Positions 1-49,072 of a stretch of 49,072 bases of DNA are shown here, piece after piece. The stretch spans positions 1 to 49,072 of the forward strand of contig JBFLZX010000002.1 in assembly GCA_040756075.1 (NCBI GenBank), read 5' to 3'. The translations under genes were made by a program, and so were the position numbers. Numbering within the stretch: position 1 is the stretch's first letter; each line of letters begins with the position of its first letter. A model generated the notes under the pieces. That model saw nothing but the letters and a program-made list of their open reading frames with translations. It was not told the DNA's origin and searched no databases. The stretch is from Patescibacteria group bacterium (GTDB taxonomy: Bacteria > Patescibacteriota > JABMPQ01 > JBFLZX01).

Positions 1-165
1 AAAAAGAAATCTCAAAAGACGTTTCAATTGCATGACAATTTGCTAAAAAACAAAAACTCACGAATAGTGAGTCTTATTTGATTTGGTTTAAAAAAATGAC
101 AAAAAACAATTTCGTAATTCAAAGCTTTTAAGCTTGTGGATAAACACTTCATTTTTTGGCAAAAA

Positions 166-176
166 TGTGATATAAT
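166..176 (+). promoter_or_regulatory. candidate extended -10 promoter element
   Basis: TG at 168-169, one base, then a perfect TATAAT at 171-176. No convincing -35. Confidence 0.3.
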
Positions 177-416
177 AATAAAGACCAAAAACCAAATACC
201 AAAAATCAAAAACAAAAATCAAAAACTGACTCCGGTGCATCGGAGTCATCCCGAGCGAGGTCGCCGCGGTAACAGAATCGAGGAATCTCTCGCGAATGCG
301 AGTTCACAAACAAGTTGTGAGGTTCCTCACTTCGGCCAGCTGGGCTGGCTTTTGCTCAGAGCGACTTATTTTTTGTTTTTAGTCTGTAGTTTTGGTCTTT
401 GATTTTTAATTTTTTA
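177..416. repeat. composite palindromic intergenic element
   Basis: Left arm of CCAAAAA/ATCAAAAA-type units (about 181-228) mirrors a right arm of TTTTTG/TTTGGT units (about 369-416). The core holds small GC-rich hairpins (gactccg/cggagtc, ctcgc/gcgag, gtgagg/cctcac, gccagc/gctggc) and a GTCATCCCGAGCGA motif shared with other elements in the window. Confidence 0.6.
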
Positions 417-419
417 TTT

Positions 420-935
420 ATGGCTGCCGCATTTTCACAAATCAATTGGTCTGTTCCATCTTGGGATCTTTTTATTTATCTTTTTTTTGTCGTAGCGGTT
501 ATTTTGTACGGCATGGCGCTGGGAAGAGAACGAGTTTTATCTATTTTAATTAGTATTTATATTGGTTTGGCAATTTCGTCTAATTTGCCTTTTTTAAATG
601 AAAAAACAGCGGCAAAAATTGGTGTTTCTTCGGTATTTACTTTAAAACTTTTGGTTTTTGCCGCCGCGCTAGTGGTTGGTTTTTATGTTTTTTCTCGCGC
701 CGGGGCGCTCGCTTCTCTATCTTCAAGTTCAAAAATTATTCATATTTTTATTTTTTCTGTTTGTCAAGTTGGACTTTTGGTCAGCGTAATTTTATCTTTT
801 TTGCCGCAAACAGTGATAGATTCCTTTTTGCCTCTAACACGTCAATTATTTACTACAGAATTGGCAAGGTTTTTATGGATTTTGGCTCCGCTTGCGGCAA
901 TGTTTTTTGCTAAAAGAACAGGCGAAACAGCTTAA
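420..935 (+). CDS. hypothetical multi-pass membrane protein
   Basis: Long ORF with several hydrophobic helices (e.g. LFIYLFFVVAVILYGMALG, LLVFAAALVVGFYVF). The ATG at 420 is preferred over the TTG at 399, which lies inside the repeat arm. Confidence 0.6.
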   Translation: MAAAFSQINWSVPSWDLFIYLFFVVAVILYGMALGRERVLSILISIYIGLAISSNLPFLNEKTAAKIGVSSVFTLKLLVFAAALVVGFYVFSRAGALASLSSSSKIIHIFIFSVCQVGLLVSVILSFLPQTVIDSFLPLTRQLFTTELARFLWILAPLAAMFFAKRTGETA

Positions 936-1081
936 AAAGGGACAGTACCTTTGATTTGGGCATGAAATTTTGGCTTTTGTTGGTTAAAAATCTTACGGAT
1001 TTTAAAAATGGGATATTTTTGTCCAATTTTGTGCGGCTTAAATTTTTTTCTTGAAGGACTAATTTTTATGTGTTATATTAG

Positions 1082-1112
1082 GAAATAAGCAAGTAAAGCT
1101 TATTTCTTTTTG
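1082..1112 (+). terminator. rho-independent terminator-like hairpin
   Basis: Stem GAAATAAGC (1082-1090) pairs with GCTTATTTC (1098-1106), followed by TTTTTG. Confidence 0.55.
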
Positions 1113-1216
1113 TTGTTTGTCGAAAAAATCGAGATCGTCACGGCGACGCATAAATTTTTGTTAGAATTTTTGAATTTATCTGAAAATTGACAATTAATAG
1201 TTGAAAATTAAATCTC

Positions 1217-2956: not shown

Positions 2957-4279
2957 ATGAAAGTTGCAATTAAAACATTGGGTTGCCGGCTAAATCAGGC
3001 AGAGTCACAGAATTTAATGGAAGAAATTGAATCTTGCGGCATTAATTTGGTTGATTTCAAGAATCAAGCCGATTTATATATTATAAATTCTTGTTCAGTG
3101 ACAAATTTAGCAGATTTTAAATCTCGGCAAGCAGTGCATTTCATTCGAAACAAACATCTAAAAGCAAAAATTTGGGCAACTGGATGTGCGAAAAGTTTAG
3201 TGCGCGAAGCAGATTTATTTTTTGAAGACAAAGAAGAGATTCCAAAAAAAATTCTTGAAGAAATTAATAATCAATTAAATTTTCAAACTAGAAGAGTGTT
3301 GTCATCTAAACACGATCGTAGTAAAATGACAACATTAAAAAGTGAATTAAAATGGGAAAATGAAAGTCTTTTTCGGACAAGGGCTTTTGTGAAAATTCAA
3401 GAAGGATGTGATAATTTCTGTGCTTATTGTATTGTGCCTTATTTGCGTGGGGAACCGAAGAGTATGCCAGCCTGCGAAATAATTAAGAAAATTAATCAGA
3501 AAGTTAATAAAGGATATAAAGAGGTGGTGTTAACAGGAGTGAATATCGGCAAGTACACTTCAAAAATTCCAAATTCCAAAATCCAAATTCCAAATAAATT
3601 CCAAATTCCAAATTCCAAAATCCAAAATATCAATTTATTTGGGTTGCTAAAATTAATACTTAAAAATACAAAAATTCCAAGAATTAGGCTGGGGTCGATA
3701 AATCCAGAAGATATTAATGGCGAATTTATAAATTTATTTCAAAATCTGCGGATGTGCCGGCATCTGCATTTGTCATTGCAGAGCGGGAGTAATAATGTTT
3801 TAGCAAGAATGGATAGAAAATATAATACAAAACGATATGAGAAAATTGTCCGGGAATTTTACCAAAAATACCCAGATTTCAATTTTACGACCGATGTCAT
3901 TGTTGGTTTTCCAGGCGAAACAGAAAAAGAATTTTTGCAAACTTATAATTTTATCAAAAAAATCGGCCTTTCTAAAGTTCATATTTTTCGTTATTCAAAA
4001 AGAAACAACACATACGCTGCAAGAATGAAAAATCAAATTGCAGAGAAGATAAAGTTAGGACGAGCAAAAAAACTAGAAATACTAAATAAAGTTTTAAAGA
4101 AAAATTTTATCAAAAAAATGCAAGGAAAATACGAAAGAGTTTTATTTGAGAATAAAAAACGCGGTTTTTGGCTGGGATTTACAAAGAATTATTTGAGAGT
4201 TAGAATGGAAAGTAGTAAAGACCTAAAAAATAAAATAATATCTATTAGGTTATCAAAGAATAATTTACTAGTCATATAG
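2957..4279 (+). CDS. mtaB: radical-SAM tRNA methylthiotransferase, MtaB-like
   Basis: N-terminal MKVAIKTLGCRLNQAES (UPF0004 domain), radical-SAM CDNFCAYCIVP, and a C-terminal TRAM-like segment. Carries an in-frame repeat insert (see 3561-3630). Confidence 0.85.
   Translation: MKVAIKTLGCRLNQAESQNLMEEIESCGINLVDFKNQADLYIINSCSVTNLADFKSRQAVHFIRNKHLKAKIWATGCAKSLVREADLFFEDKEEIPKKILEEINNQLNFQTRRVLSSKHDRSKMTTLKSELKWENESLFRTRAFVKIQEGCDNFCAYCIVPYLRGEPKSMPACEIIKKINQKVNKGYKEVVLTGVNIGKYTSKIPNSKIQIPNKFQIPNSKIQNINLFGLLKLILKNTKIPRIRLGSINPEDINGEFINLFQNLRMCRHLHLSLQSGSNNVLARMDRKYNTKRYEKIVREFYQKYPDFNFTTDVIVGFPGETEKEFLQTYNFIKKIGLSKVHIFRYSKRNNTYAARMKNQIAEKIKLGRAKKLEILNKVLKKNFIKKMQGKYERVLFENKKRGFWLGFTKNYLRVRMESSKDLKNKIISIRLSKNNLLVI
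3561..3630 (+). repeat. in-frame TTCCAAA/ATCCAAA tandem-repeat insert inside mtaB
   Basis: caaaaattccaaattccaaaatccaaattccaaataaattccaaattccaaattccaaaatccaaaat translates as SKIPNSKIQIPNKFQIPNSKIQN. It has the same unit as the intergenic AAATCCAAA elements. Confidence 0.85.
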
Positions 4280-4441
4280 CTTTTAAATCCAAATGCCAAA
4301 ATCCAAATTTCAAATCAGATCCAAAATCTAAATGACAAATTAACCCTCTTATATAAGTATAAGGGAGGAGGTGGAGGAGTTGTGTTTTAGATTTTAAACT
4401 TTGACATTCATTTGAAATTTGAGCTTTGGATTTTAGATTTT
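4280..4441. repeat. AAATCCAAA-family palindromic intergenic element
   Basis: The left arm (aaatccaaatgccaaaatccaaatttcaaatc...) mirrors the right arm (...gaaatttgagctttggattttagattt). The GC-rich centre is ccctcttatataagtataagggaggaggtggagg. Confidence 0.8.
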
Positions 4442-4442
4442 T

Positions 4443-4769: not shown

Positions 4770-4772
4770 AAA

Positions 4773-4917
4773 ATGTATCTTGTATCTAGTATCTGGAATC
4801 TAGAATTGAATTTTGAATTATGAATTCCGAATTATATCCGTTTTTAGCGGATAAATATTCATAATTCTTCATTCACGATTCGATTCGAGATACGAGATAC
4901 CAGATTCGAAATTCAAC
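4773..4917. repeat. palindromic intergenic element (GTATCT/GAATT-unit family)
   Basis: gtatcttgtatctagtatctggaatctagaattgaatt... mirrors ...cgattcgagatacgagataccagattcgaaattc, with a central atccg-ttttta-gcggat hairpin. Related element at 43535-43738. Confidence 0.75.
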
Positions 4918-4918
4918 A

Positions 4919-6594: not shown

Positions 6595-6760
6595 ATTCCA
6601 AATTACAAGCACCAAATTCTGTCCCTGCGGGACATCTTCCGAAGGGAGGCAAATAAACTCAAAATTCAAATATCAAATGACCAAAACATCAATATTTTGA
6701 ATTTGTAATTTTGGTCATTGGGATTTATTTGTGATTTGGAATTTGAGATTTGGAATTTTT
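6595..6760. repeat. AAATTCCAAA-family palindromic intergenic element
   Basis: aaattccaaattacaagcaccaaatt... mirrors ...gtgatttggaatttgagatttggaattt. An inner pair is caaatgaccaaaa/ttttggtcattg. Confidence 0.75.
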
Positions 6761-8135: not shown

Positions 8136-8185
8136 ATAACAACTAATAACCACTAACAACTAATAACTTATAACTAATAACTATT
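8136..8185. repeat. tandem AACTAATA-type half element
   Basis: ataacaactaataaccactaacaactaataacttataactaataacta matches the right arm of the element at 30393-30488. No partner arm lies nearby. Confidence 0.6.
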
Positions 8186-8205
8186 GCCCCATATCTGTTA
8201 CCTTT

Positions 8206-16371: not shown

Positions 16372-17142
16372 ATGAAAAAACTCATTTTAGCCGCAGTTGG
16401 ATTACTTTTAATCTTTCCAACTTTAACATTCGCAAGTGGTTACAATTCTTGGACAAGGCAGCGTCTTGGGCCAAGTACAGGTTATGGTGAGCCAAAAATG
16501 TCGGCTAACGGAAAATATATGGTTGTTCAAAAGATGGCAGGGCCGATTCATACCGGCACTTTTTGGTTTTTTAAGGTAAAGGGCGCAAAACCTCTTTGGC
16601 GCTATAAAGGAAGCAAAATTTTTGATTTAGCAATTTCCAAAAAAGGGGATTATGTTGCCGCGGTTGGCAGTAAGATTCAGCTTTTTTCAAAAAAATCAAA
16701 AAGGCCGCTTTGGTCAAATAACTTGGGAGTGAGTGTTATGGACAGCGTAGCGATTACCCCTGATGGGAATTATATTGTCACCGGTGATCGTTTTGGCACG
16801 GTTTTTCTTTTTGAAAAAGGAAATAGAAATTCTATTAAGACCTGGCGCGTTTTTCCTGGTGAATTTGTTAACAAAGCGGTTATTTCCTCTGACGGCAAGT
16901 ATCTTGTAGTAGGTTCGGATCTAGGCGTTGCATTATTAGATCGAAATAAAAACAATCCGGTTTGGAAATATAAAACAAAGGAAGCAGATGGAAGCGCGGA
17001 TAGCATTTTACATTTGTCGATGTCTTCCTCTGGCAAATATTTTGTTGCTACGACAAGTCAAGGAGATAATTTGTATTTATTTAACAAAAATAAAAGAAAG
17101 CCAAAATGGACATATCATCAGGATAGTTTTCATCCTATTTAA
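16372..17142 (+). CDS. secreted PD40/WD40-like beta-propeller protein, 5' part (frameshift-split)
   Basis: Signal peptide MKKLILAAVGLLLIFPTLTFA. There are periodic blades of the type [ST]..G.Y[IV].. then ..P.W.. (SANGKYMVV, SKKGDYVAAVG, TPDGNYIVTGD, SSDGKYLVVGS, SSSGKYFVATT). Confidence 0.7.
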   Translation: MKKLILAAVGLLLIFPTLTFASGYNSWTRQRLGPSTGYGEPKMSANGKYMVVQKMAGPIHTGTFWFFKVKGAKPLWRYKGSKIFDLAISKKGDYVAAVGSKIQLFSKKSKRPLWSNNLGVSVMDSVAITPDGNYIVTGDRFGTVFLFEKGNRNSIKTWRVFPGEFVNKAVISSDGKYLVVGSDLGVALLDRNKNNPVWKYKTKEADGSADSILHLSMSSSGKYFVATTSQGDNLYLFNKNKRKPKWTYHQDSFHPI

Positions 17143-18049
17143 TGCTTCAATTTCTTCTGACGGCAAGTATATAACATTAGCAAGCAATGATAAGTATTTA
17201 GGCTTTTTGACTAATAGCAACGTGCCAAAATGGACTTTTGAATTAGACGGCAGACAGCCAGACGTTAGCCAATCTGCTAACGGCAAATACATTGCTATTG
17301 CTGATAATCTGGATTATCTTTATCTTTTTGATCGGACATATGGAAGTTCACAGCGGCCATTTAGAATTTATGAGGGTGCTTTTCCTGATGCTTTAACTTT
17401 AAGCAGTAAAGGAGATAAATTAGTTTATGATGAACGAGATTTGCATTATCAGGAAATTATCCCAGGTGTATTATCCGATTTGCAGGATAGAGCGGCAATT
17501 TATGTTAAGGGTCAAGATATGAATATACGGATTTTTGCGACAAATCCAGGCAAAGCAAGAAGAATGAATGTCCAGGTGCGGCTGTCATTGCCTACTATCG
17601 CTTGGTGGGAAAATATCGGCGATCAAGTAAAAAATGAAAATGATAATTTAGTTTCAAAAGCAATAAGTTTATTAATGGAAGGGTATGGCGGGGATACAAT
17701 TTATGACAAAACTTTTACTTTTGAAGCGCAGAAAAGCAGGACAATCAGCGAAACATTTGAAGTGCCGGCCTTAAACCAGCCAGACTGGTATAATTCTTGG
17801 TATATGTCTTTTTTGAGCGGAGGAAGTATTTTAATTGGCCGATTAATTGATAAATTAGGCGATGCTTTGGAATATGTTTTGCCGGATGTAATTGCTAATA
17901 CTATTACTGCTGGATTGCGAACAATGAGCGAAGGCGGAAACCCAACTTTTTATCCAACTATTGGTTTGGGTAAAGTCATTTTGTCTGATCCAGACACCGG
18001 CGAAGTTATAGATTCCGATACCTTTACTTTTGCCTTTATACTTTCGTAA
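16988..18049 (+). CDS. same beta-propeller protein, 3' part (meaningful coding only from about 17140)
   Basis: The blade pattern continues in the +1 frame (NASISSDGKYITLAS, VPKWTFEL, SANGKYIAIAD). The first ~50 codons of the called ORF overlap the 5' part in another frame. Confidence 0.65.
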   Translation: MEARIAFYICRCLPLANILLLRQVKEIICIYLTKIKESQNGHIIRIVFILFNASISSDGKYITLASNDKYLGFLTNSNVPKWTFELDGRQPDVSQSANGKYIAIADNLDYLYLFDRTYGSSQRPFRIYEGAFPDALTLSSKGDKLVYDERDLHYQEIIPGVLSDLQDRAAIYVKGQDMNIRIFATNPGKARRMNVQVRLSLPTIAWWENIGDQVKNENDNLVSKAISLLMEGYGGDTIYDKTFTFEAQKSRTISETFEVPALNQPDWYNSWYMSFLSGGSILIGRLIDKLGDALEYVLPDVIANTITAGLRTMSEGGNPTFYPTIGLGKVILSDPDTGEVIDSDTFTFAFILS

Positions 18050-23632: not shown

Positions 23633-23636
23633 TATA

Positions 23637-29185: not shown

Positions 29186-29190
29186 GTTTA

Positions 29191-29803: not shown

Positions 29804-29808
29804 ATTAT

Positions 29809-29998: not shown

Positions 29999-30002
29999 GA
30001 GG

Positions 30003-30392: not shown

Positions 30393-30488
30393 TTGGTTCA
30401 TGGTTCATAGTTGGTAGTTCATAGTTCATAGTTGGTGGTTTGTAGTTATTGAACTATGAACTAATAACCAATAACTAATAACTAAACA
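30393..30488. repeat. palindromic intergenic element (GTTCATA/TATGAAC and AACTAATA units)
   Basis: ggttcatggttcatagttggtagttcatagttcatagttgg... mirrors ...ttgaactatgaactaataaccaataactaataacta. Confidence 0.75.
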
Positions 30489-30489
30489 A

Positions 30490-30927: not shown

Positions 30928-31015
30928 TTTAGTGTTTAGCTTTTAGCGGTTTAGCGTTTAGTGAAAATTTATTAATCACTAATTCATTAATCTCTATACG
31001 CTAAACGCTAATAAA
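30928..31015. repeat. palindromic intergenic element (TTTAGCG/CGCTAAA units)
   Basis: tttagtgtttagcttttagcggtttagcgtttagtg... mirrors ...ctatacgctaaacgctaataa. Confidence 0.7.
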
Positions 31016-31016
31016 T

Positions 31017-31646: not shown

Positions 31647-31720
31647 TCGCAAAACGTATAACATATAACGTATAACGTAAGTTGAAAAAACGTTACATGT
31701 TACAAGTTACACGTTACACG
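31646..31720 (+). repeat. TTACAAG-family hairpin element, copy 3 (upstream of rpoA)
   Basis: atcgcaaaacgtataacatataacgtataacgtaagttgaaaaaacgttacatgttacaagttacacgttacacg. It starts at the last base of the rpsD stop codon and ends 5 nt before ATG 31726. Confidence 0.8.
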
Positions 31721-31725
31721 AAAAT

Positions 31726-32682
31726 ATGGAAGACATTATCCAACCATCAAAAATTTTTACTAAAGATGAAAAAGGAAATGAAGCAACAATTATTATTGAA
31801 CCTTGTTATCCTGGTTATGGATCAACGCTGGGGAATGCTTTGCGCCGTGTTTTGCTTTCTTCACTTCCGGGTTGCGCAGTTTCTCAAATTAAAATCAAGG
31901 GAGTGGACCATGAATTTTCTACAGTTTCTTTTATTAAAGAAGATGTGATAGAAATAATTTTGAACTTAAAAAGATTGCGTTTAAAAATATTTCACGATGA
32001 GCCAGTAAGACTGAAGCTGCAAAGCGAGGGCGAGAAAATAATTCGCGCCTCGGATATTAAAAAAGATGCCGCAGTATCCATTATTAATCCCGAACTTGTA
32101 ATTGCTCATGCAACCGACAAAAAAGCAAAGTTGGAAATAGAAATTATTGTTGAGAAAGGACGAGGTTATGTGCCAGTTGAACAAAAAAATTCTAAAGATT
32201 TAGAAATTGGGATGATAAATGTTGATTCTATTTTTACCTCAGTAGTTTCAGTTGGCTACGAAGTAGAAAATATGCGCGTAGGGAAACGAATAGATTTTGA
32301 TCGCCTGATAATGAAAATAAAGACCGACGGGTCAATTACGCCTCTTGAAGCATTTATTCAGGCAGCAAAGATTTTACAAAAACAATTTATAGTTTTGTCA
32401 GAGCCAGAAAAATTAAAAGAAAAAGCAAAAGAGATAGAAGAAATTAAAAAAGAAGAAAAGACGGAAGTAAAGTTGCCCGTCGGAATTGGAGAGGTTTCGC
32501 TTGGTGAATTAAACTTTTCAACAAGAACATTCAATGCCTTAGCGAGAGCAAAAATTCAAACCCTAGTTGATGTGGCGTCAAAATCAGAAAAGGAACTTCT
32601 CAAGCTGACTGGATTTGGTCAGACCGCACTTTCCGAAGTAAAGCGCGCTTTAAAAAAATATAATGTTGAGCTAAAACCATAA
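31726..32682 (+). CDS. rpoA: DNA-directed RNA polymerase alpha subunit
   Basis: IEPCYPGYGSTLGNALRRVLLSSLPG in the N-terminal domain, and the C-terminal domain L.ELNFSTRTFNALARAKIQTLVDV. 318 aa. Confidence 0.95.
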   Translation: MEDIIQPSKIFTKDEKGNEATIIIEPCYPGYGSTLGNALRRVLLSSLPGCAVSQIKIKGVDHEFSTVSFIKEDVIEIILNLKRLRLKIFHDEPVRLKLQSEGEKIIRASDIKKDAAVSIINPELVIAHATDKKAKLEIEIIVEKGRGYVPVEQKNSKDLEIGMINVDSIFTSVVSVGYEVENMRVGKRIDFDRLIMKIKTDGSITPLEAFIQAAKILQKQFIVLSEPEKLKEKAKEIEEIKKEEKTEVKLPVGIGEVSLGELNFSTRTFNALARAKIQTLVDVASKSEKELLKLTGFGQTALSEVKRALKKYNVELKP

Positions 32683-32754
32683 ATTGCAAAACATGTAACG
32701 CGTAATTTATAACTCAAGAATTGAAACTTGCGTTACAAGTTACAAGTTACACAA
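32683..32754 (+). repeat. TTACAAG-family hairpin element, copy 4 (upstream of rplQ)
   Basis: attgcaaaacatgtaacgcgtaatttataactcaagaattgaaacttgcgttacaagttacaagttacaca. Confidence 0.8.
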
Positions 32755-32757
32755 TTA

Positions 32758-33108: not shown

Positions 33109-33260
33109 ATCGCTAATTTACACGAATTTTCTTGGCAACTTTTATTTTTGAAATAGATTCGTAGTAGATGCCTTAAACACTCCTATTCGTCGTGTTTAAC
33201 TTTAATTTCTGCGAATATTATTCGTGAATATTCGAGGTAAATTAGCGTAGATTAGCGATT
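33109..33260. repeat. palindromic intergenic element (GCTAAT/CGAATA units)
   Basis: atcgctaatttacacgaatttt... mirrors ...attcgaggtaaattagcgtagattagcgat. Confidence 0.65.
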
Positions 33261-33728
33261 ATGAAATTACATATCCCAAAAACCCACTTACCAAAGGCAA
33301 AAGAAATCAAACGCGCCTGGCATCTGCTGGATGCAAAAGACATTTCGTTGGGCAGGCTGGCAAGCAAGGCGGCCTTTTTGCTTATTGGAAAGCATAGGCG
33401 CGACTACACCTCACATCTTGATTTAGGTGATTTTGTTGTTGTTATAAATGCAAAAAAAATAAAAATTACGGGCAATAAATTAGAAGGCAAAATTTATCAT
33501 CGTTATACCGGATATCTTGGTCATCTTAAGAATATTAAATTACAGGAAAAATTTGAAAAAGATCCCCAATGGGTTATTAAGAAAGCAGTAAAAGGAATGA
33601 TTCCGGCAAATCGTCTGCGGCCGCAGCGACTTTGCAGATTAAAAGTATTCGTTGATGAAAAGCACCCCTATATTAATAAATTCCAAATTTCAAATCATAA
33701 ATCCCAAATAAATTCAAAATTCAAATGA
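33261..33728 (+). CDS. rplM: ribosomal protein L13 with a repeat-derived C-terminal tail
   Basis: WHLLDAKDISLGRLASKAAFLLIGKHR..YT...D.GD.VVVINA.KI..TG.K...K.YY.H.TGY.G matches the L13 pattern. The last ~17 aa (NKFQISNHKSQINSKFK) are translated repeat. Confidence 0.92.
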   Translation: MKLHIPKTHLPKAKEIKRAWHLLDAKDISLGRLASKAAFLLIGKHRRDYTSHLDLGDFVVVINAKKIKITGNKLEGKIYHRYTGYLGHLKNIKLQEKFEKDPQWVIKKAVKGMIPANRLRPQRLCRLKVFVDEKHPYINKFQISNHKSQINSKFK

Positions 33729-33815
33729 CTTAAATTCAAAACAGTTTTGAATTTTGAATTTTGAGCATTTAATATTGTTTAGTATTTCGTGCTTAGAATT
33801 TAGAATTTATTTAGT
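33675..33815. repeat. AAATTCAAA-family palindromic element overlapping the rplM 3' end
   Basis: aataaattccaaatttcaaatcataaatcccaaataaattcaaaattcaaatgac mirrors gttttgaattttgaattttgagcattt...cttagaatttagaatttattt. Confidence 0.75.
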
Positions 33816-33816
33816 T

Positions 33817-34398: not shown

Positions 34399-34437
34399 GG
34401 TTATGTATAGATAAAACATTATGAATTCACATTATTT

Positions 34438-34575
34438 GTCATTCTGAGGCCGAAAGCCTTTTGAGGCCGAAGAATCTCTCACGCCTGCCTGCCGGCAGAC
34501 AGGAATGCGAGATTTCCATATTTATGGGAGATTCTTCATTTTGTTTCGAAAAATCAGGACTTTGTTCAGAATGAC
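34438..34575. mobile_element. 138-nt MITE-like element with GTCATTCTGA / TCAGAATGAC termini
   Basis: Perfect 10-bp inverted termini (34438-34447 and 34566-34575). The interior holds hairpins (ggccgaaagcc, ctgcctgccggcagacag, gagaatctc-type). It lies between the convergent rpsI and the minus-strand gene. Confidence 0.6.
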
Positions 34576-34628
34576 GGCTATTAAAAGTTTAGTGCGATTT
34601 CATAGTGCGATGTCTATATTTGAACTTT

Positions 34629-38033: not shown

Positions 38034-38125
38034 ATTAAAATTTTAAATTTTAAACGAAATTCAAAATTCAAATGTTTAAAAATTTAGTCATTTAAAATTG
38101 ATTAAAAATTTAAAATTAAAAATTC
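38034..38125. repeat. low-complexity AAATTTTAAA/AAATTCAAA intergenic element
   Basis: attaaaattttaaattttaaacgaaattcaaaattcaaatgtttaaaaatttagtcatttaaaattgattaaaaatttaaaattaaaaatt. Confidence 0.6.
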
Positions 38126-38131
38126 TTGATC

Positions 38132-39139: not shown

Positions 39140-39240
39140 ATTATTTATTAATCAATTAACGAATTAACGTATTAACGAATTACAGTCAAGTTTCGTTTGA
39201 CTTTAATGCGTTAATTCGCAATTCGTTAATTGAATAATAG
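39140..39240. repeat. TTAACGAATT-family palindromic intergenic element
   Basis: caattaacgaattaacgtattaacgaatt-acagtcaagtttcgtttgacttt-aatgcgttaattcgcaattcgttaattg. Confidence 0.8.
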
Positions 39241-39248
39241 TTTAATTA

Positions 39249-40374: not shown

Positions 40375-40530
40375 AATTTTTGATATAGTAATAAGAGAAT
40401 TTACAATTTAATAAATCCAAAATCCAAAGCTCAAATGCCAAATGAATATCAAATGATAAAAATCTAAATAATTTTTTGTCATTTTGATTTTGGATTTAAT
40501 TTGAAATTTGGATTTTGACATTTGGATTTA
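40375..40530. repeat. AAATCCAAA-family palindromic intergenic element
   Basis: aaatccaaaatccaaagctcaaatgccaaatgaatatcaaatga... mirrors ...tcattttgattttggatttaatttgaaatttggattttgacatttggattt. Confidence 0.8.
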
Positions 40531-41541
40531 ATGTTGAATAATTGCTCTATCTGTGGCCATCGCAGAATTATTTCCGCCTTACAAAAAAATATTCGCCAGG
40601 ATCGACTTGCCCATGCTTATTTATTTTCCGGGCCAGAGGCGGTTGGCAAGAAGACCGTTGCTTTAAATTTTGTTAAAACTTTGCAATGTGAGGGGCGGGA
40701 AAAGCCTTGCGGAATGTGCCAAACTTGTTTTCAGATTGAAAAAAATATTCATCCGGATACGATTATTTTTCAAAAAGACATAACGGGCGATTCAAAAGGA
40801 GGACAAGAAATCAAGATTTTTGAAATGCGGGATATCCAAAAGAAAATGAGTTTGAAACAATATAGCGCGCCGTATAAAATTTTACTGCTAGATCGAGCAG
40901 AAAATCTAAATGACGAAGCGGCAAATTCGCTTTTAAAATTTTTAGAAGAGCCAAAAGGCAAAACTTTAATTATATTAATTACTAATAATATTAATATGGT
41001 TTTGCCGACAATTATTTCCCGCTGTGTTACGATAAATTTTTTATTAGTGCCAAAAAACGAGATGCTAAAATATTTTGAAAGGAAGGTTGAAGCTTTACAA
41101 TCCAAAACATACGGAGCGCAAAACCTAAATTTAGAAGAAATAATAAATTATTCTTTAGGTCGGCCGGGAAATGTTATTAGATGGTTAGAAAACCCAAAAG
41201 ATTTTATAGAAAGCAAAGAAATTGTCAAAAATTTTGCAAAAGTTGTTTTAGCAGATAATATAACAGAAAAATTCAAATTTATTTCGCAGTTTTATAATAA
41301 AAAAGAAGAAAGTATTAAATTATTGATGCATCTTCTTATGTTTTATCAGCATCTGTTATCATGGCAGATTGGTCGGGAGGATTTAGAAGATGATAAGGAA
41401 ATAAGACAATTTGCTAGGCGATATGAGATTAATAAAATTAGAAATGCTTTATTTCAAATTATTTCTGCTAAAAAATTTATTTTACAGAACGCCAATTTAA
41501 AACTTGTTTTAGAAAATATGATGCTGAACATTGGCCATTAG
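40531..41541 (+). CDS. holB: DNA polymerase III delta' subunit
   Basis: RLAHAYLFSGPEAVGKKTVALNFVKTLQC, the zinc module CGMCQTCFQIEKNIHPD, and SRC-like IISRC. 336 aa from ATG 40531. Confidence 0.82.
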   Translation: MLNNCSICGHRRIISALQKNIRQDRLAHAYLFSGPEAVGKKTVALNFVKTLQCEGREKPCGMCQTCFQIEKNIHPDTIIFQKDITGDSKGGQEIKIFEMRDIQKKMSLKQYSAPYKILLLDRAENLNDEAANSLLKFLEEPKGKTLIILITNNINMVLPTIISRCVTINFLLVPKNEMLKYFERKVEALQSKTYGAQNLNLEEIINYSLGRPGNVIRWLENPKDFIESKEIVKNFAKVVLADNITEKFKFISQFYNKKEESIKLLMHLLMFYQHLLSWQIGREDLEDDKEIRQFARRYEINKIRNALFQIISAKKFILQNANLKLVLENMMLNIGH

Positions 41542-41598
41542 CCATTGATCAATGTTCGATGTTTAATGATTTAAATTCCCCGAAGCTTGTCTTATATC

Positions 41599-41781
41599 GT
41601 CATTCCGAGCGACCCTGAGCGAACAAAGTGAGTCGAAGGGGAGTCGAGGAATCTCATAAGCTGTGAGATTTCTCTCCCCCACCATTTTCTCAACAAATAT
41701 TCACTGACTATTTCTCGTTTCTTTTAAATCTTAGAAAGATTATTTCAAGGGTTGTAATACATGGTGGGGGATCGAAATGAC
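41599..41781. mobile_element. GTCATTCCGAGCGA-type MITE-like element (reverse orientation relative to 29477-29560) carrying a nested insert
   Basis: gtcattccgagcgaccctgagcgaa..gagtcgaggaatctcataagctgtgagatttctc[insert]tcgaaatgac aligns with the reverse complement of 29477-29560. Confidence 0.65.
41675..41771. mobile_element. 97-nt nested element with 11-bp TCCCCCACCAT / ATGGTGGGGGA termini
   Basis: Perfect 11-bp inverted termini interrupt the host element. Confidence 0.55.
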
Positions 41782-41834
41782 AGCTGAATACCTCGCAGTA
41801 AGCTAGCGAGGTAGTTCATTGATTAATAAAAACA

Positions 41835-42890
41835 ATGCATAAAAAGTTTATTTTCATTGCCGTTTTAGCAGTTTTGGTCTTTGCCGGCGAGGCTTGTTCG
41901 CGCCGAAATTATGATTTAGGAATCTATAAATCTAGCGATGGCGGCAATAGCTGGGAACAGAAAATAAAAATTGGCAAAAAGAAAGCGCTGGCTACTTTTG
42001 AAATTTTGAGTTTGGCTTTGGATCCTCAAAATTCGCAAGTAATTTATGCCGGCACCAAGGATAAAGGACTTTATAAAAGTGTTGATGGCGCCGAATCTTG
42101 GCAGAATACATCGTTAAAGCAAGGAGATATTACTTCTATTGCTATTGATTTTAAAGATCCGAATATTATTTATCTGACTTCTTATGTTGGTGATTTTGGC
42201 AAGATTTATAAATCCGAGGATGGAGGGAATAAATTTGAGGAAATTTATTCCGAGACGCATCAACAGATCCCGGTTTATTCTTTAGCTTTAGATTGGTATG
42301 ATTCGCGAATAATTTGGGCAGGGACAAAAAAAGGGGCAGTAGTAAAAAGCGAAGATTCTGGCCGAAATTGGATTGTTAAGAAATGGCTTGAAAGCGAGAT
42401 TGTCCAGATTGCAATAAGTTCGAAAGATTCTCGTCATATAATTATTGGGACAGGAACCGACGGTCTTATAAAAACTGAAGATGGCGGTAAAACCTGGCAG
42501 CAAATTAATGAAGCTTTTTTAGCTAAAGATGATAAAGTAAGATCAAAAGAGAAATTGCAGGTTTATTCTTTGATTTTTGCTTGGTCATCGCCGGGCTCAG
42601 TTTATTTTGCTTCCAAATATCAACTTTTAAAATCGTCGGATGAAGGAAAAAGCTGGCAGGAAATAAAACTTTTAACAAAGCCGCAGGAAGCTTCGTTAAT
42701 GCGGATAGCTTTAGATTCATTTGATTCGGAAAAAATTTATCTCGGTTTAGATTCAAATATTTATAAATCTGAAGATGGAGGAAAAAATTGGAAAGTAAAA
42801 AAATTTACTTCCGGCAGAATTTCCGCTCTTGTTGTCGACCCGCAGGAAACCTCAAAAATTTATGCGGGAATAAGAAAGCCGAAAGAATAA
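41835..42890 (+). CDS. lipoprotein-like Asp-box (BNR)/Ycf48-like beta-propeller protein
   Basis: Signal peptide with a Cys (FAGEAC). Repeats are YKSSDGGNSWEQ, YKSVDGAESWQN, YKSEDGGNKFEE, VKSEDSGRNWIV, IKTEDGGKTWQQ, LKSSDEGKSWQE and YKSEDGGKNWKV. Confidence 0.8.
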   Translation: MHKKFIFIAVLAVLVFAGEACSRRNYDLGIYKSSDGGNSWEQKIKIGKKKALATFEILSLALDPQNSQVIYAGTKDKGLYKSVDGAESWQNTSLKQGDITSIAIDFKDPNIIYLTSYVGDFGKIYKSEDGGNKFEEIYSETHQQIPVYSLALDWYDSRIIWAGTKKGAVVKSEDSGRNWIVKKWLESEIVQIAISSKDSRHIIIGTGTDGLIKTEDGGKTWQQINEAFLAKDDKVRSKEKLQVYSLIFAWSSPGSVYFASKYQLLKSSDEGKSWQEIKLLTKPQEASLMRIALDSFDSEKIYLGLDSNIYKSEDGGKNWKVKKFTSGRISALVVDPQETSKIYAGIRKPKE

Positions 42891-42968
42891 TTGCGAAACT
42901 TGTAACGTATAACATATAACTCAAGAAGTAAAACTTGCGTTACAAGTTATATGTTACAAGTTACACGA
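42891..42968 (+). repeat. TTACAAG-family hairpin element, copy 5 (upstream of frr)
   Basis: ttgcgaaacttgtaacgtataacatataactcaagaagtaaaacttgcgttacaagttatatgttacaagttacacga. Confidence 0.8.
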
Positions 42969-42975
42969 AGTGTTT

Positions 42976-43533: not shown

Positions 43534-43534
43534 A

Positions 43535-43738
43535 TTAAAAATGAATCTCGTATCTAGCAACTGGGATCTAGAATAGAATTATGAAATTAGAAATTGGTTG
43601 TTAGAAATTGGAAATTTGTAATAGAAAATGGAAATTAGAAATTAGTTACCATTTTCTATCTTCCAAAAACTAATTTCAATTTTCTTAAATTCTATATTCG
43701 ATTCAAGATACGAGATACTAGATTCTAGATTCAAATAT
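43535..43738. repeat. palindromic intergenic element (GTATCT/GAATT/GAAATT units)
   Basis: atctcgtatctagcaactgggatctagaatagaatt... mirrors ...attcgattcaagatacgagatactagattctagattc. An inner pair is tagaaaatggaaattagaaattagt/accattttcta. Confidence 0.75.
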
Positions 43739-43740
43739 TT

Positions 43741-44844: not shown

Positions 44845-44845
44845 A

Positions 44846-44930
44846 ATTATCAATTGTTCAATTAACATATTGCGGATTAACGGATTAAGTCAAGCGAAGT
44901 TTGACTAAAATTCGTTAATAAATAATTTAC
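44846..44930. repeat. TTAACGAATT-family palindromic intergenic element
   Basis: caattaacatattgcggattaacggatt-aagtcaagcgaagtttgact-aaaattcgttaataaat. Confidence 0.75.
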
Positions 44931-44932
44931 AA

Positions 44933-46231: not shown

Positions 46232-46423
46232 ATTATTAGGCTAAAAATTCTAAATCCAAAATTATCCCGATTTTATCGAGGATTCTCGACAAAGTCGGAA
46301 CAAATTGCAAATAAATTTCAATAATCAAAATTCTAAATTACAAAATGTTTTAGTTATTAGATATTAGAATTTAGATATTATTTGGAATTTGGTGCTTGGT
46401 GTTTGGAATTTAATTTATTTATT
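46232..46423. repeat. AAATCCAAA-family palindromic intergenic element
   Basis: aaaaattctaaatccaaaatt... mirrors ...atttggaatttggtgcttggtgtttggaattt. The centre contains cccgattttatcgaggattctcgac. Confidence 0.7.
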
Positions 46424-47497
46424 GTGTCTTTTTTAAATAAATTTTCAAATTTATTTGGTTCAGTCTCAAAAGATTTAGGTATTGACCTTGGAACGGCCAA
46501 TACTTTAGTTTATGTCAAGGGCAAAGGAATTGTTATAAACGAACCATCGGTTGTTGCGATTAATAAAAAAACCAGCCAAATATTGGCAATTGGCGGGGAA
46601 GCACAAAAAATGGTTGGCAAAACACCTGGCCATATCGCGGCGATTAAACCGCTTTCTGACGGCGTTGTTTCAGATTTCGAAGTAACCGAACAGATGCTGC
46701 ATTATTTTATTGAAAAAGTTCATCAAGAAGGTTTTACATTGTTTCCTCGGCCGCGGGTTGTAATTGGTATTCCTTCAGGAGTTACAGAAGTAGAAAGAAG
46801 AGCAGTCGAAGATGCGGCGATAAATGCAGGAGCAAGAGAGGCCTTTTTAATTGAGGAGCCAATGGCGGCAGCAATCGGCGCCAGACTGCCGGTGCAAGAA
46901 GCTTCTGGCTGTATGATTTGTGATATTGGTGGAGGAACGACAGAGGTAGCAGTAATTTCGTTAGGTGGAATTGTTATTTCTCATTCTTTGCGCATCGCGG
47001 GAACAGAAATGAATGAAGATATTATTCAATACGCCCGTTCGGAGTTTAATTTACTTTTAGGCGAGCGAACTGCTGAAGAGATAAAAATTAAAATAGGATG
47101 CGCTTATCCGCAGGACGAGATTATAGAAACTTCAATACGCGGCCGCGATCTTATTTCCGGCTTGCCAAAAGAAATAAAAATTACGAATGAGCAGGTGCGC
47201 GAGGCTATTTCTCGTTCAGTGAAAAGCATTGTTAATGAAATAAAAGACGCAGTTGAAGAAACGCCGCCAGAAATTATTTCGGATATTATGGAGCGAGGCA
47301 TTATTTTGGCTGGTGGGGGATCGTTATTATCTGGTCTTGATCAGCTTATTACTGAACAAACCCAGATGCCAGTGCATATAACTGATGATCCATTAACCTG
47401 TGTTGTCCGCGGCTGCGGCATTGTTTTAGAAGATTTAGACGCTTTAAAAGATGTTTTAGTAACCACCCAATATTCAAAGCCGCCGAGGAAAAAGTAA
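46424..47497 (+). CDS. mreB: rod-shape protein MreB (paralog 2, heads mreBCD)
   Basis: LGIDLGTANTLVYVKGKGIVINEPSVVA, MICDIGGGTTEVAVISLGG and GIILAGGGSLLSGLDQLI. GTG 46424 is preferred because the upstream part of the called ORF is repeat. The start is uncertain. Confidence 0.9.
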   Translation: MSFLNKFSNLFGSVSKDLGIDLGTANTLVYVKGKGIVINEPSVVAINKKTSQILAIGGEAQKMVGKTPGHIAAIKPLSDGVVSDFEVTEQMLHYFIEKVHQEGFTLFPRPRVVIGIPSGVTEVERRAVEDAAINAGAREAFLIEEPMAAAIGARLPVQEASGCMICDIGGGTTEVAVISLGGIVISHSLRIAGTEMNEDIIQYARSEFNLLLGERTAEEIKIKIGCAYPQDEIIETSIRGRDLISGLPKEIKITNEQVREAISRSVKSIVNEIKDAVEETPPEIISDIMERGIILAGGGSLLSGLDQLITEQTQMPVHITDDPLTCVVRGCGIVLEDLDALKDVLVTTQYSKPPRKK

Positions 47498-47562
47498 ATT
47501 AGTTAATTAGTTGAATAGGAAATTTTTAACTACTTAACTATTCAACTATTTAATCAACCCAA

Positions 47563-48366
47563 GTGCCTAAATTTTCGCGCCATCCATTTTTTATTTTTAT
47601 TTTGGCAATTGTTTTAGTTATTTTTCTCATTGTTTTTCATTTAACTGGTATATTAAAACCAATAGAAAATTTAACGGTGATGATTGTTTCGCCATTTGAG
47701 CGAGGTATATCTGCAGTTGGCAGTAAAATCGCGAATACTTTTCATTTTTTTGGACAGGTAAAAAATTTATCAAATCAAAATAAGAAACTTGAGGAAGAAA
47801 ATAAAAAACTTCTTTCTGAAAATACAACATTAAAAGAGGTTAAGCGGGAAAATCAACTTTTACGAAGCCAGCTTGATTATGAGAAATATGCCACAAGAAA
47901 ACTTTTACCCGCGTTTATTATTGGTTTTGATCCTTATAATTTACTTCAAACAGTTGTTTTAAATCGAGGAGAAAAAAATGGTGTAAAAAAAGATATGGCA
48001 GTATCCGCCTCCGGCGATATTTTAGTCGGACAAGTACAAGAAACAACTTATACTACTTCTAAAGTTCTTTTAATTATTGATAGCCACGCTGTCGTTCCTG
48101 CTCAGATTCAATCGACAAGAGCAACAGGTCTTGTCCGCGGAGAACATGGTTTAGGTTTAATTATGGAAATGATTCCGCAGGATGAAGTAATTCAGATTGG
48201 AGATTTAGTGATTACTACCGCCCTGGGGTCAAAATTTCCGCCAGGGCTTGTAATTGGAGAAATTGAGGAAATAATCACATCAGAAAATGAGCTTTTCCAA
48301 AAAGCTCGCATAAAATCGCCAGTAGATTTTAAGCGGTTAGAGAGCGTGTATGTGGTGTTGGAGTAG
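47563..48366 (+). CDS. mreC: rod-shape protein MreC
   Basis: N-terminal TM helix, a coiled coil (NKKLEEENKKLLSENTTLKEVKRENQLLRSQL), and a C-terminal beta domain ...VITTALGSKFPPGLVIGEI. Follows mreB. GTG start. Confidence 0.85.
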   Translation: MPKFSRHPFFIFILAIVLVIFLIVFHLTGILKPIENLTVMIVSPFERGISAVGSKIANTFHFFGQVKNLSNQNKKLEEENKKLLSENTTLKEVKRENQLLRSQLDYEKYATRKLLPAFIIGFDPYNLLQTVVLNRGEKNGVKKDMAVSASGDILVGQVQETTYTTSKVLLIIDSHAVVPAQIQSTRATGLVRGEHGLGLIMEMIPQDEVIQIGDLVITTALGSKFPPGLVIGEIEEIITSENELFQKARIKSPVDFKRLESVYVVLE

Positions 48367-48425
48367 TTCATAGTTCATAGGTAGTTAATAACCATGAACC
48401 CTGAACTCTGAACTATGAACTAAAT
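48367..48425. repeat. GTTCATA/TATGAAC-unit palindromic element
   Basis: gttcatagttcataggtagttaataaccatgaaccctgaactctgaactatgaac. Same unit as 30393-30488. Confidence 0.7.
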
Positions 48426-48426
48426 T

Positions 48427-48951
48427 ATGAAGTATTTCCTTTCTTTTCTTATTATTTTATTTGCTGTCATTCTTCAGGTTTCCTTTTTGCCCCATTTTAA
48501 AATTTATAATGTCATTCCGAATTTATTTTTGCTGATTCTTGCTTCTTGGGCGATTTTACGCCAGCATCGAGAGGCATATATTTGGGGTTTTTTTGGGGGT
48601 TTGTTTTTGGATTTAAATTCCCAAATTTTATTTGGCGTAAACACTTTAAGTTTTCTTGTTAGTGCGCTTGCAATTTTTTTTATCATCAAAAATTTTGTTA
48701 ATGTAAATAATTTAGTTTCGAAAATAATTTTGATTTTTTTAGCTTCAATATTTTATAAATTTGTTTCTCTTGCCTTTCTTATTTTAGCCGGATTTTTTAG
48801 ACTTTATTCCTGGTTCCAATTATCAAAAAATTTTATTTATTTAATTATTATTGAAATTATTTTGAATATTATTTTAATATTTTTAGTTTATCCTTTTATT
48901 CGCGGCTTCCACCATTTCATTTTGCGCTACGAAGAAAGAAGAAAGGTTTAA
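48427..48951 (+). CDS. mreD: rod-shape protein MreD (polytopic membrane protein)
   Basis: 174-aa protein with ~5 TM helices directly after mreC. The assignment rests mainly on position and topology. Confidence 0.7.
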   Translation: MKYFLSFLIILFAVILQVSFLPHFKIYNVIPNLFLLILASWAILRQHREAYIWGFFGGLFLDLNSQILFGVNTLSFLVSALAIFFIIKNFVNVNNLVSKIILIFLASIFYKFVSLAFLILAGFFRLYSWFQLSKNFIYLIIIEIILNIILIFLVYPFIRGFHHFILRYEERRKV

Positions 48952-48979
48952 GGGCTGGCTTTGGAATAAAACTTACCAC

Positions 48980-49072
48980 TTATATAGTCAGCCTAAATTT
49001 AACTTGATGAATTAAAGAAATTTTCTTTTTGTATTCTGAATAGACTAATAATTGTTCTTTTTCAATATCCCA
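48980..49072 (-). CDS. possible 3' end of a minus-strand gene running off the window
   Basis: The reverse strand reads WDIEKEQLLVYSEYKKKISLIHQVKFRLTI* in frame with the window edge. Only 31 codons are visible and nothing is recognisable. Confidence 0.25.
   Translation of the reverse strand, partial: WDIEKEQLLVYSEYKKKISLIHQVKFRLTI

Follow-up and report, generated by a model that had tools for sequence, protein, structure and literature searches.

The intergenic spacers of contig JBFLZX010000002.1, from a Patescibacteria group bacterium (assembly GCA_040756075.1), raise the question of why so many of them are long hairpins whose arms consist of short tandem units, in many unrelated unit sequences and with one common design. 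The stretch analyzed, referred to here as the window, comprises positions 1 to 49,072 of this contig, which belongs to the Parcubacteria, tiny-celled bacteria within the Candidate Phyla Radiation (CPR). The hairpins were found to be real and widespread; for their mechanism of spread and for any role at the RNA level, proposals are put forward below from sequence comparison. [quoted passage not shown]

Intergenic Spacers Fold into Hairpins with Heptamer Arms

Every spacer of 30 nt or more in the window was surveyed, 40 in all, and their folding was expressed as z scores against mononucleotide shuffles. Values of -3 or below were obtained for 31 of the 40 spacers (median -4.5). The coding control, 60 windows of 100 nt, gave a mean z of -0.45 and not a single value at or below -3 (0/60; Mann-Whitney p = 1e-9). 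In a second folding test, 20 spacers were each compared with 200 dinucleotide shuffles; z ranged from -1.4 to -8.3, and no equally stable shuffle was found for 12 of them. The initial annotation of the window had called for such a comparison with shuffled controls. The spacers folded far better than the shuffles, the repeat unit named in the annotation was present at every position listed there, and the observation is confirmed as real and far beyond chance.

A significant short period was detected in 27 spacers, of 7 nt in 21 and of 8 nt in 4. Tandem Repeats Finder reported period 7 in 55 of 148 rows, 39 of these 55 being inside the approximately 15% of the window that is non-coding. A strong hairpin and tandem-unit arms occurred together in 25 of the 40 spacers, amounting to 4.9 kb in total. 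The description of nearly every spacer as a palindrome with arms of 6-8-mers was thus too strong: hairpins are present in about three quarters of the spacers and hairpins with tandem arms in about five eighths, and the unit, which is indeed arranged in tandem, is essentially of 7 nt and sometimes of 8. Direct arrays without an inverted partner were also found, namely a TAACTAA-type heptamer array at 8136-8205 (minimum free energy 0; period 7, p 0.01) and a CATTAAA heptamer array at 23594-23636 (period 7). These and all elements below lie on the + strand unless stated otherwise.

The feet of the hairpins, as placed by RNAfold, lie 0-5 nt past the stop codon and 1-20 nt ahead of the next start codon, and all copies of any one family share one orientation relative to the genes. 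The elements had been described as filling the spacers exactly from stop to start. The feet do abut both codons, but part of this exactness came from open reading frame (ORF) calls that run into the arms. Mechanical calls began at TTG or GTG inside 3' arms (21779, 29967, 32728, 33754 and 40522), with spurious N-termini such as LRYKLQVT, and the homology-corrected starts lie at 21824, 30003, 32758, 33817 and 40531. Reading on into a 5' arm makes ribosomal protein L13 (33261-33728) 14 residues longer than it is in relatives.

As the annotation had also seen, several elements have GC-rich hairpin centres (4342-4378, 16150-16240, 29446-29580 and 41580-41810). It had described most of the hairpins as lacking a U-tract: no heptamer hairpin in the window is followed by a T tract, and none was among the terminator-like calls. 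A search of the whole window with Rfam at gathering score returned tRNA-Lys only and no match for the elements. The best promoter-like matches (5358, 19523 and 36101) fall in the few spacers without a hairpin.

Dispersed Families with One Architecture

More than ten unrelated unit sequences share this architecture within 49 kb. The elements measure 60-210 nt, each family has 2-9 copies in the window, and the inverted repeat takes in the element from end to end. The copies of a family align through their non-repetitive loops and termini and not through the arms alone, which indicates that the families are true dispersed repeats rather than look-alikes.

Copies of the GTAACGT/GTTACAA family lie upstream of rpmJ (29726-29806, z -4.13), from the rpmJ stop to the rpsM ATG at 30003 (29921-30002, z -4.43), at the rpsD-rpoA junction (31645-31725), from the rpoA stop to the rplQ ATG at 32758 (32682-32757, z -4.14) and upstream of frr (42889-42975, z -6.89). 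The first two are 100% identical over 77 nt, and those at 32682 and 42889 show 86 and 88% identity; the copy at 31645 shows 87% in a separate alignment. The upstream TAA or TAG stop is located inside the first unit of this family, and the ATG comes after or within the last one. A TAACG core is common to heptamer and octamer families. Six clear spacer copies belong to the AAATCCA family and three, with a common GTCAAG-type centre, to the TTAACGAA octamer family; the CATTGA family has three as well.

Turnover at Syntenic Junctions of Close Relatives

Relatives were taken as contigs (L-numbers) graded by RpoA identity, obtained through an RpoA protein search and contig look-ups. The ribosomal operon of the window reads infA-rpmJ-rpsM-rpsK-rpsD-rpoA-rplQ-rplM-rpsI. 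One of the relatives, L006, shows a difference of 0.114 at third codon positions; of 10 syntenic junctions, 3-4 are occupied in it by families other than those of the window. The window elements are kept in L006 at glxA-infA, rpsK-rpsD, rpoA-rplQ and upstream of rpmJ. A different family was found at rpmJ-rpsM, at rpsM-rpsK (GTAACGT in place of the GTTCATA family of the window) and at rpsD-rpoA (AATCTCA in place of GTAACGT), and a different sequence at rplQ-rplM. A 150-nt GC module after infA is present in the window and not in L006. The element upstream of rpmJ differs between the two by exactly one 7-nt unit, the L006 ortholog being the shorter. The divergence of orthologous elements, 0.086-0.216, equals or exceeds that of third positions, and hence there appears to be no sequence constraint on them.

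At 84% RpoA identity, L007 shows yet other families at several junctions. The TTTAGCG family is found one junction further along, at rpsD-rpoA, the rpoA-rplQ junction is occupied by another family, and two spacers measure 28 nt and 6 nt, as against 117 and 230 nt in the window. L013 (76% RpoA identity) still bears the GTAACGT element at rpoA-rplQ. The spacers of L011, L012, L008 and L010 (72-60% RpoA identity) are mostly of 1-36 nt and have no period-7 hairpins, and non-coding DNA makes up 3-7% of these contigs vs 12-13.5% in the clade of the window. Since families differ among close relatives and the spacers of the 60-72% relatives are short, the elements are additions specific to their lineage, and they are gained, lost and replaced very fast, on a time scale of about 0.1 substitutions per synonymous-like site at these gene junctions. 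The comparison of syntenic spacers suggested in the initial annotation thus revealed both presence/absence and arm-length differences (L006 and L007).

Occurrence in Distant Parcubacteria and Inside Genes

A metagenome scan with the GTAACGT 5' arm recovered about 27 family members on many unrelated contigs of 33-48% GC. Syntenic ribosomal operons of Parcubacteria, whose RpoA is ~42% identical to that of the window, make up the longer contigs, one of which is Parcubacteria GW2011_GWA2_47_64, of a Taylorbacteria-related clade. Heptamer-armed hairpins of many unit families fill most junctions in these distant contigs too, including a TTTAGCG-like element at rpsK-rpsD (L061), the same junction as in the window. 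At the rplQ-rplM junction of a second clade, the GTAAC family was found in L061 and L080, a CTAGGC element in L115, an A-rich one in L116, and 5 nt only in a 74%-identical relative. Three near-identical CTAGGC hairpins occupy rpoA-rplQ, rplQ-rplM and rplM-rpsI of L115 (6967-7917; GCA_030649775.1, Taylorbacteria clade), a pattern that indicates recent local spread.

The GTAAC copies precede rpmJ, rpsM, rpoA, rplQ and frr in the window and the genes of L13, L14, L5, L2 and S9 elsewhere. An exclusive link of this family to ribosomal genes was ruled out by copies at pth, galU-like, CCA-adding enzyme, ftsX, DUF763, pilin and hydrogenase genes. The search pattern also caught a different dispersed repeat (CACGCAAAATTTATAACATATAACGGTTTTTATGGCACGCAGATGACGCAGATTT...) of another organism, which contains GCAGATN heptamers and was present in L036, L043, L045, L057, L064, L073, L087-L089, L091, L095, L096, L112 and L114, mostly Ga0209737 contigs.

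Furthermore, A-rich heptamer arrays were detected in frame within genes of the window, where they are translated as low-complexity inserts. An AAATTCC array is located in the miaB-like gene (3558-3641), and an AAATYCG array with a GC-rich module in mnmA (18708-18830) forms a 41-aa insertion absent from homologues. In alaS, two arrays are present at 22389-22630 (CAAATCC/AAATTCA and AATCTTA), and a further one lies at 22937-22978. The in-gene copies consist of stop-free arms only, with no inverted partner and sometimes with a GC module; they are never the whole palindrome. As a separate observation, the AlaS of the window (22200-22400) is without the segment with the CHPNCxCGRF motif seen in the L008 and L010 homologues, and a heptamer-encoded insert is nearby.

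Origin of the Elements and Alternative Explanations

The selfish-repeat reading, favored by a small balance only, was drawn from the dispersed homologous copies, the fast presence/absence change and replacement, the nesting of elements inside one another's loops, the in-frame copies, the neutral-rate change and the patchy distribution. Two of the origins listed as candidates in the initial annotation are supported by these data: REP/MITE-like spread, by the dispersed copies, the presence/absence differences and the replacement among close relatives, the occurrence of the same family in distant lineages and the in-frame copies, and slippage-driven growth, by the 7-nt periodicity and the exact 7-nt unit indel between orthologous elements.

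According to this reading, the ancestral spacers would have been only a few nt long. The arms would lengthen and shorten by replication slippage, which is known to favor heptamers in bacteria and probably acts here because a whole 7-nt unit was gained or lost between the window and L006, and hairpin-templated (quasi-palindrome) correction would keep the two arms complementary. Spread would be of the copy-and-paste type, with no duplication of the target and perhaps with recognition of structure rather than sequence. Persistence at stop-start junctions might be allowed by three circumstances: a self-folding insert would hold the stop and the next start near in space, the 5' arm would give stops in all three frames and end the upstream ORF, and the host would hardly use Shine-Dalgarno (SD) sites. 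Effects on RNA (processing, stability, coupling) would probably be secondary, and a host RNA function such as coupling or processing is possible as a secondary or co-opted role.

Several results weigh against selfish repeats. No target-site duplication was found in the alignments of filled and short sites (window, L006 and L007), and no clean pair of empty and filled sites was resolved in the junction alignments of the relatives. The borders of the GTAACGT family show no duplication either (5' flank TAA; 3' flanks GGATG, AAATATG, TTAATG and GTGTTT). Whole-spacer replacement through homologous recombination between strains, and not excision and insertion, could have produced the exchanges. Neither among the window proteins (Pfam and NCBIfam; 49 kb of the genome) nor in the relatives with annotation was a transposase, a REP-associated tyrosine transposase (RAYT) or an integrase found. 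The flanks of the metagenome copies held ordinary genes and no mobilizing gene, no related autonomous insertion sequence (IS) was present in 101 metagenome stretches with the GTAAC 5' arm, the one family searched, and viral contigs gave 0 hits for the GTAAC-family pattern and no sign of phage carriage. Moreover, the 5' arm of this family, GT(A/G)TAAC-GCAAAAC-GTGTAAC-GTATAAC, hardly changes from one distant lineage to another, and the 3' arm varies without compensation. The higher conservation of the 5' arm is unpredicted by a purely selfish model, although it was measured on copies fetched with a pattern from that arm and is partly ascertainment. Nor does pure selfishness predict that in four lineages the GTAAC family is enriched upstream of ribosomal genes and of genes for translation; local spread within operons explains part of this. 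Finally, the co-orientation, the stop-rich 5' arm and the abutting stop and start mean that some orientation-dependent selection is at work, which could reflect a host function.

The main rival is a host function of the RNA, for which the orientation bias and the ribosomal-operon link speak and which is nonetheless considered unlikely. The elements would then be host-beneficial intercistronic RNA hairpins: the fold would bring the stop beside the start, and ribosomes would re-initiate (coupling or shunt-like) without SD pairing, or else the stems would act as RNase III or 3'-exonuclease barriers and so determine how stable each cistron is. Any complementary arms would suffice, hence many sequences with one design. 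The distance left between stop and start after folding matches the 1-36-nt spacers of the element-free relatives, every copy is co-oriented with the genes, and the spacers with promoters are hairpin-free. An SD-like motif at most 25 nt from the start was found in just 2 of 39 genes (20748 and 36162), and translation initiation in the host appears to proceed largely without SD pairing. Of 25 elements, 14 had stops in all three frames in the 35 nt that follow the upstream stop (vs 4.8 expected), and the last 35 nt of the elements had no such excess (6 vs 4.4 expected); therefore, orientation matters at the translation level. The enrichment of GTAAC copies at ribosomal-protein junctions is parallel to the TAACTGA heptamers of Beggiatoa (PMC4679880), and the 42889 copy carries a two-sided change that perfects the pairing of one unit (ACATATAAC / GTTATATGT).

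Nevertheless, such hairpins are absent at 60-72% RpoA identity, unrelated families replace them within 11% third-position divergence, and they diverge at or above the synonymous-like rate. The sense strand was the more stable one in 12 of 27 elements, with no overall G.U advantage on the mRNA strand. The GTAAC family, that of the ribosomal operon, has one A.C mismatch per unit on the sense strand, and for this reason its antisense strand folds 10-20 kcal/mol better. Covariation was almost nil, though hardly informative: in GTAACGT, the one alignable family, double changes were seen in only 2 of 19 predicted pairs, with a covariation term of ~0. The same units also stand in frame inside genes, where such a role is impossible. 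The RNA-level roles that the annotation had listed (end protection, processing and pausing) therefore gain no support from sequence, as there is no sense-strand G.U advantage, no excess conservation and no occurrence in moderately related genomes. None of the public sequencing runs searched contained the window (best 6% of words), and the only RNA runs that turned up for the window or for L061, three small SOLiD runs, had a 0.00 share.

Less likely still is a new CPR-specific class of structure-directed mobile hairpins, pasted precisely at stop-start junctions by an enzyme that would read extruded hairpins or iterated heptamers. The host would have co-opted them for a re-initiation hand-over of ribosomes across the stem, and the arms of each family, such as GTAAC in ribosomal operons, would tune gene classes.

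Little credence is given to a purely local mutational by-product, in which each spacer would grow its own hairpin by heptamer slippage and template switching, with no transposition, from a seed such as a stop-codon heptamer. Such growth would agree with the period of 7 common to all families, the whole-unit indel between orthologues, the stop codon inside the first GTAAC unit, the gradual drift of units along the arm at 4770-4918 and the partnerless direct arrays at 8136 and 23594, and a heptamer slippage bias is described in a passage of PMC4692102. However, copies at non-homologous junctions have their loops and termini in common (100, 88 and 86% over 77 nt, and the L115 triple), one family occupies different junctions in different genomes and occurs in lineages at ~42% RpoA identity, and whole elements are replaced between genomes 11% apart at third positions.

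Even less can be granted to a regulon model, according to which the heptamers (for instance TAACG every 7-8 nt) would be iterated operators, bound either by a regulator of translation genes that recognizes RNA or DNA or by a transposase specific to the family, with the inversion reflecting dimeric binding. The near-invariant GTAAC 5' arm opposite an uncompensated 3' arm, the TAACG core of heptamer and octamer families and the enrichment beside ribosomal-protein genes would be expected from it. Conversely, one regulator cannot read more than ten unrelated units with the same architecture in 49 kb, unrelated genes are also flanked by copies, close relatives exchange families at the same junction, and the 5'-arm conservation is in part the product of how the copies were fetched. 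The GUUACAAG units may resemble the complement of 16S rRNA 1497-1510, a likeness on which no argument is built here.

Virtually no chance is left for a known structured element under another name, since, although intrinsic terminators, integron attC sites and tandem interspaced guide RNA (TIGR) arrays all form hairpins between genes, attC is conserved in structure and not in sequence, and TIGR arrays occur in Patescibacteria (PMC12045711), no Rfam family matched, and terminators are ruled out by the missing T tract, the AT-rich stems and the position inside a conserved ribosomal operon, attC by syntenic core genes that are not cassettes, the lack of an integrase in the window and the absence, by inspection, of RYYYAAC/GTTRRRY core sites, and TIGR by a period of 7-8 nt and not ~36, some 25 dispersed junctions and no Nop-domain Tas protein in the window.

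Remaining Elements and Neighboring Genes

Hairpins of the AAATCCA family fill the junction of the miaB-like and hyp108 genes (4280-4442, around the GC-rich centre 4342-4378; z -2.4 with dinucleotide and -4.0 with mononucleotide shuffles; period 7), lie at 16094-16260 (large GC-rich nested centre; reference copy in the repeat alignment), and extend to the corrected alaS ATG at 21824 (21694-21823, no GC centre; z -3.09, 86% identity) and to the holB ATG at 40531 (40400-40530, z -3.49). An AAATTCC/AAATTCA-family hairpin at 6595-6760 has a GC-rich insert near its 5' foot (z -5.4, period 7). In the AAATTCA-family element at 33672-33816, the 5' arm codes for the C-terminal extension of L13 and the 3' arm precedes the rpsI ATG at 33817. 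An AAATTCT-type element with a GC-rich insert is located at 46232-46381 (z -3.2, period 7), and a weak hairpin of AAATTTT/AAATTCA type, with 10% GC, lies between murA and mreB (38034-38131, z -1.37).

Regarding the octamer-armed hairpins, those of the TTAACGAA family are found at 9682-9782 (centre GTCGAGC/GCTCGAC; z -8.26, period 8) and 39140-39248 (GTCAAG/CTTGAC-type centre; z -7.02, period 8, 0.90). A TTGTTATC / CAAGATAA hairpin stands upstream of infA (29074-29190; z -2.97, period 8) and is present in L006 but not in L007, and a TTAGTTRA hairpin is at 47498-47562 (z -4.77, period 8). A degenerate hairpin of the TTAACGNA family was found at 44845-44932 (z -4.07, 64% identity).

Heptamer arms were also seen in an AGATAWW / ATCTAAT hairpin (10244-10332, z -5.78), in the GTTCATA / AACTATG hairpin of rpsM-rpsK (30393-30489, z -4.26), in a GTTCATA-family hairpin of mreC-mreD (48367-48426, z -2.88) and in the TTTAGCG / CGCTAAA hairpin of rpsK-rpsD (30928-31016, z -6.21). 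In the hairpin at 4770-4918, the units drift from GTATCTN to GAATTNN along 49-nt arms with a small GC centre (z -6.05; period 7, match 0.86). The composite at 43534-43740 has outer GTATCTN arms, related to those at 4770, and inner GAAATTR arms (z -5.7, period 7). The long imperfect hairpin of rplQ-rplM, ATCGCTAATTTAC.../...GTAAATTAGCGAT, has no significant short period (33109-33260, z -4.51).

The GC-rich palindromic modules form a family that starts with GTCATTYCGAGCGA... and ends with ...TCGGAATGAC, with sites at 29478-29570, 41598-41790, 34440-34590, 18780-18830 and 26040-26130, as well as in L021 and L062. These modules occur within AT-rich hairpins, as nested units, in the space between convergent genes and, once, in frame in mnmA; the loops of the 4280 and 16094 copies contain them and that of the 21694 copy does not. 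About 150 nt of nested modules follow a CATTGAA heptamer array at 29404-29585 (modules absent from L006 and L007), and about 200 nt are enclosed by CATTGA-type arms at 41525-41834 (z -4.9). The module between the convergent rpsI and PEGA genes (34399-34628, no strand assigned) is present in L006, and L007 has a 6-nt spacer instead. Similar modules were seen after GTAAC arms in unrelated metagenome contigs, and the modules appear to be mobile in their own right.

The window has a GC content of 35% and a positive GC skew over its whole length, and its + strand carries all genes but one. Besides the ribosomal operon, the core genes dinB, miaB-like, VirD4/TrwB, mnmA, alaS, ftsA, murA, mreBCD, holB, frr, rseP and proS are present. 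The RpoA homologues found by protein search were labelled Parcubacteria or Patescibacteria, and the nearest species-representative genomes had only ~42% RpoA identity to the window. In rpmJ (29809-29922), the window and L006 have ACG at the codon that matches the L36 ATG of L007, with no canonical in-frame start upstream and an otherwise conserved ORF. Translation may begin at this ACG, which directly adjoins the 3' foot of a hairpin, in a non-canonical or coupling-dependent manner.

The tRNA-Lys gene (1363-1437) is flanked by two more tRNA-Lys(UUU)-like genes, at 1218-1362 and 1449-1623, in both of which the D-loop is split by a GC-rich hairpin module of ~70-95 nt. The 3' part of the second (1550-1623) scored 18.6 bits as a tRNA, with its 5' acceptor/D-arm half ~95 nt upstream, and a relaxed Rfam scan of 900-1800 returned tRNA fragments only. 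The two represent disrupted pseudo-tRNAs or else tRNAs whose D-loop carries an unusual insert.

A "spacer" of 894 nt by gene calls is followed by the overlapping ORFs 16222-17142 and 16988-18049. No protein family was found for the second, and 16222-18049 is possibly one frameshifted or mis-assembled repeat-protein gene. The ~180-nt coding repeats at 10442-11681, in an FG-GAP repeat protein, are ordinary domain repeats unrelated to the spacer elements. Additionally, an AAAAACC heptamer array at 180-226, with its inverted partner at 381-423, 153 nt apart, overlaps the small ORFs 136-402 and 399-935; the 88-aa ORF 136-402 may be spurious.

Implications and Comparison with Known Systems

Judged by the window (~4.9 kb of 49 kb in hairpin-plus-period spacers), the elements make up about a tenth of the genome. 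Parcubacteria lineages that bear them have been public since 2015, and no description was found. Annotation is distorted, as ORFs continue into the arms, starts are wrongly called at TTG/GTG, and proteins acquire extensions and in-frame inserts encoded by the repeats; the elements likely break assemblies and bins. They serve as fast strain markers. They also offer a natural system in which to study the survival of long palindromes where the genome is minimal and repair is scarce, the preference of bacterial slippage for 7-nt units, and how tightly coupled genes are expressed with 60-160 nt of self-folding RNA between stop and start and without SD pairing.

The initial annotation knew of no described system that yields many unrelated units with one design, which is correct in part only. 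Heptamer arrays, REP, RPE and MITE palindromes and eukaryotic foldbacks each show part of the features; the combination, or its occurrence in CPR bacteria, was not found described, and full-text literature searches returned no description of heptamer-armed palindromes in CPR bacteria. A tree-of-life survey reported the highest inverted-repeat density of any phylum in the CPR groups Candidatus Campbellbacteria and Kaiserbacteria and left the cause open (PMC13155455).

The REP, BIME and REPIN (REP doublet) sequences of Enterobacteria and Pseudomonas are mobilized by RAYT Y1-transposases (PMC3333891, PMC3733652). Like the elements described here, REP sequences are extragenic imperfect palindromes of high copy number, with several families per genome and no coding capacity, that lie between co-transcribed genes just after stops and show no target duplication. 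REP sequences, however, are of 20-40 nt, carry a GTAG/CGTC tag (PMC3733652) and have no tandem units, unlike the present elements of 60-160 nt with heptamer arrays. No such foot tag was common to the family termini (TCGCAAAAC...ACACGA, TTTAGYG... and TTGGTTCAT...) by inspection.

The RPE are palindromic families located between genes and in frame in essential genes (PMC10969869). By their description, they resemble the present elements in comprising multiple palindromic families in the reduced genome of a host-dependent bacterium, with intergenic copies and in-frame copies that add peptide segments. They differ in host phylum, in their length of ~100-150 bp, in encoding a conserved peptide and in lacking tandem heptamers, whereas the in-gene copies here are a stop-free A-rich arm only, with or without a GC module. 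The MITEs found in operons (Correia; enterobacterial repetitive intergenic consensus, ERIC; Chunjie; PMC10969869) are likewise small, non-autonomous, mostly intergenic and tolerated in operons, with inverted termini. With 60-210 nt and 2-9 copies per family, the elements fall within the definition of MITEs by size (50-500 bp), terminal inverted repeats and multiple copies. Nevertheless, MITEs have defined terminal inverted repeats, target-site duplications and related IS; none of these was found here, where a palindrome built of tandem units takes up the entire element.

The closest match in architecture is given by the eukaryotic Foldback (FB-type) transposons such as Galileo (PMC4168063), whose inverted arms are made of short tandem repeats. 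These are of kilobase scale, with P/MULE-type (Mutator-like element) transposases and target duplications, and a common origin with the elements is not implied. The palindromic repeats of organelles (Volvox, the sponge repetitive hairpin elements, RHE, and the "palindromic microsatellites" of Fusarium; PMC2670323, PMC2800124, PMC7218506) share the small genomes, the intergenic DNA inflated by many families of hairpin-forming repeats, and the nesting. They belong to another compartment and have other sequences, and heptamer periodicity is no reported hallmark of theirs.

Intergenic heptamer arrays comprise the cyanobacterial short tandemly repeated repetitive (STRR) sequences, the TAACTGA arrays of Beggiatoa, cyanobacteria and Bacteroidetes, and the GGGAATC arrays of Xanthomonas (PMC4679880, PMC4692102). 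In Beggiatoa, the TAACTGA heptamers are found immediately upstream of translation genes devoid of ribosome-binding sites (PMC4679880), and the passage of PMC4692102 mentioned above, citing Mrazek 2007, attributes the excess of heptamers among bacterial simple sequence repeats (SSRs) to polymerase slippage. As in these arrays, the units here are 7-nt tandem repeats over-represented between genes, the features by which heptamer SSRs and STRRs are recognized. They also vary in length between relatives, often lie directly upstream of translation-gene starts without ribosome-binding sites, contain stops in all frames in the forward orientation, and show a patchy phylogenetic distribution that suggests transfer. 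STRR-type sequences are direct arrays of one or a few units, occasionally inverted, whereas the elements of the window form many families, nearly always as two complementary arrays, whose copies have their loops in common.

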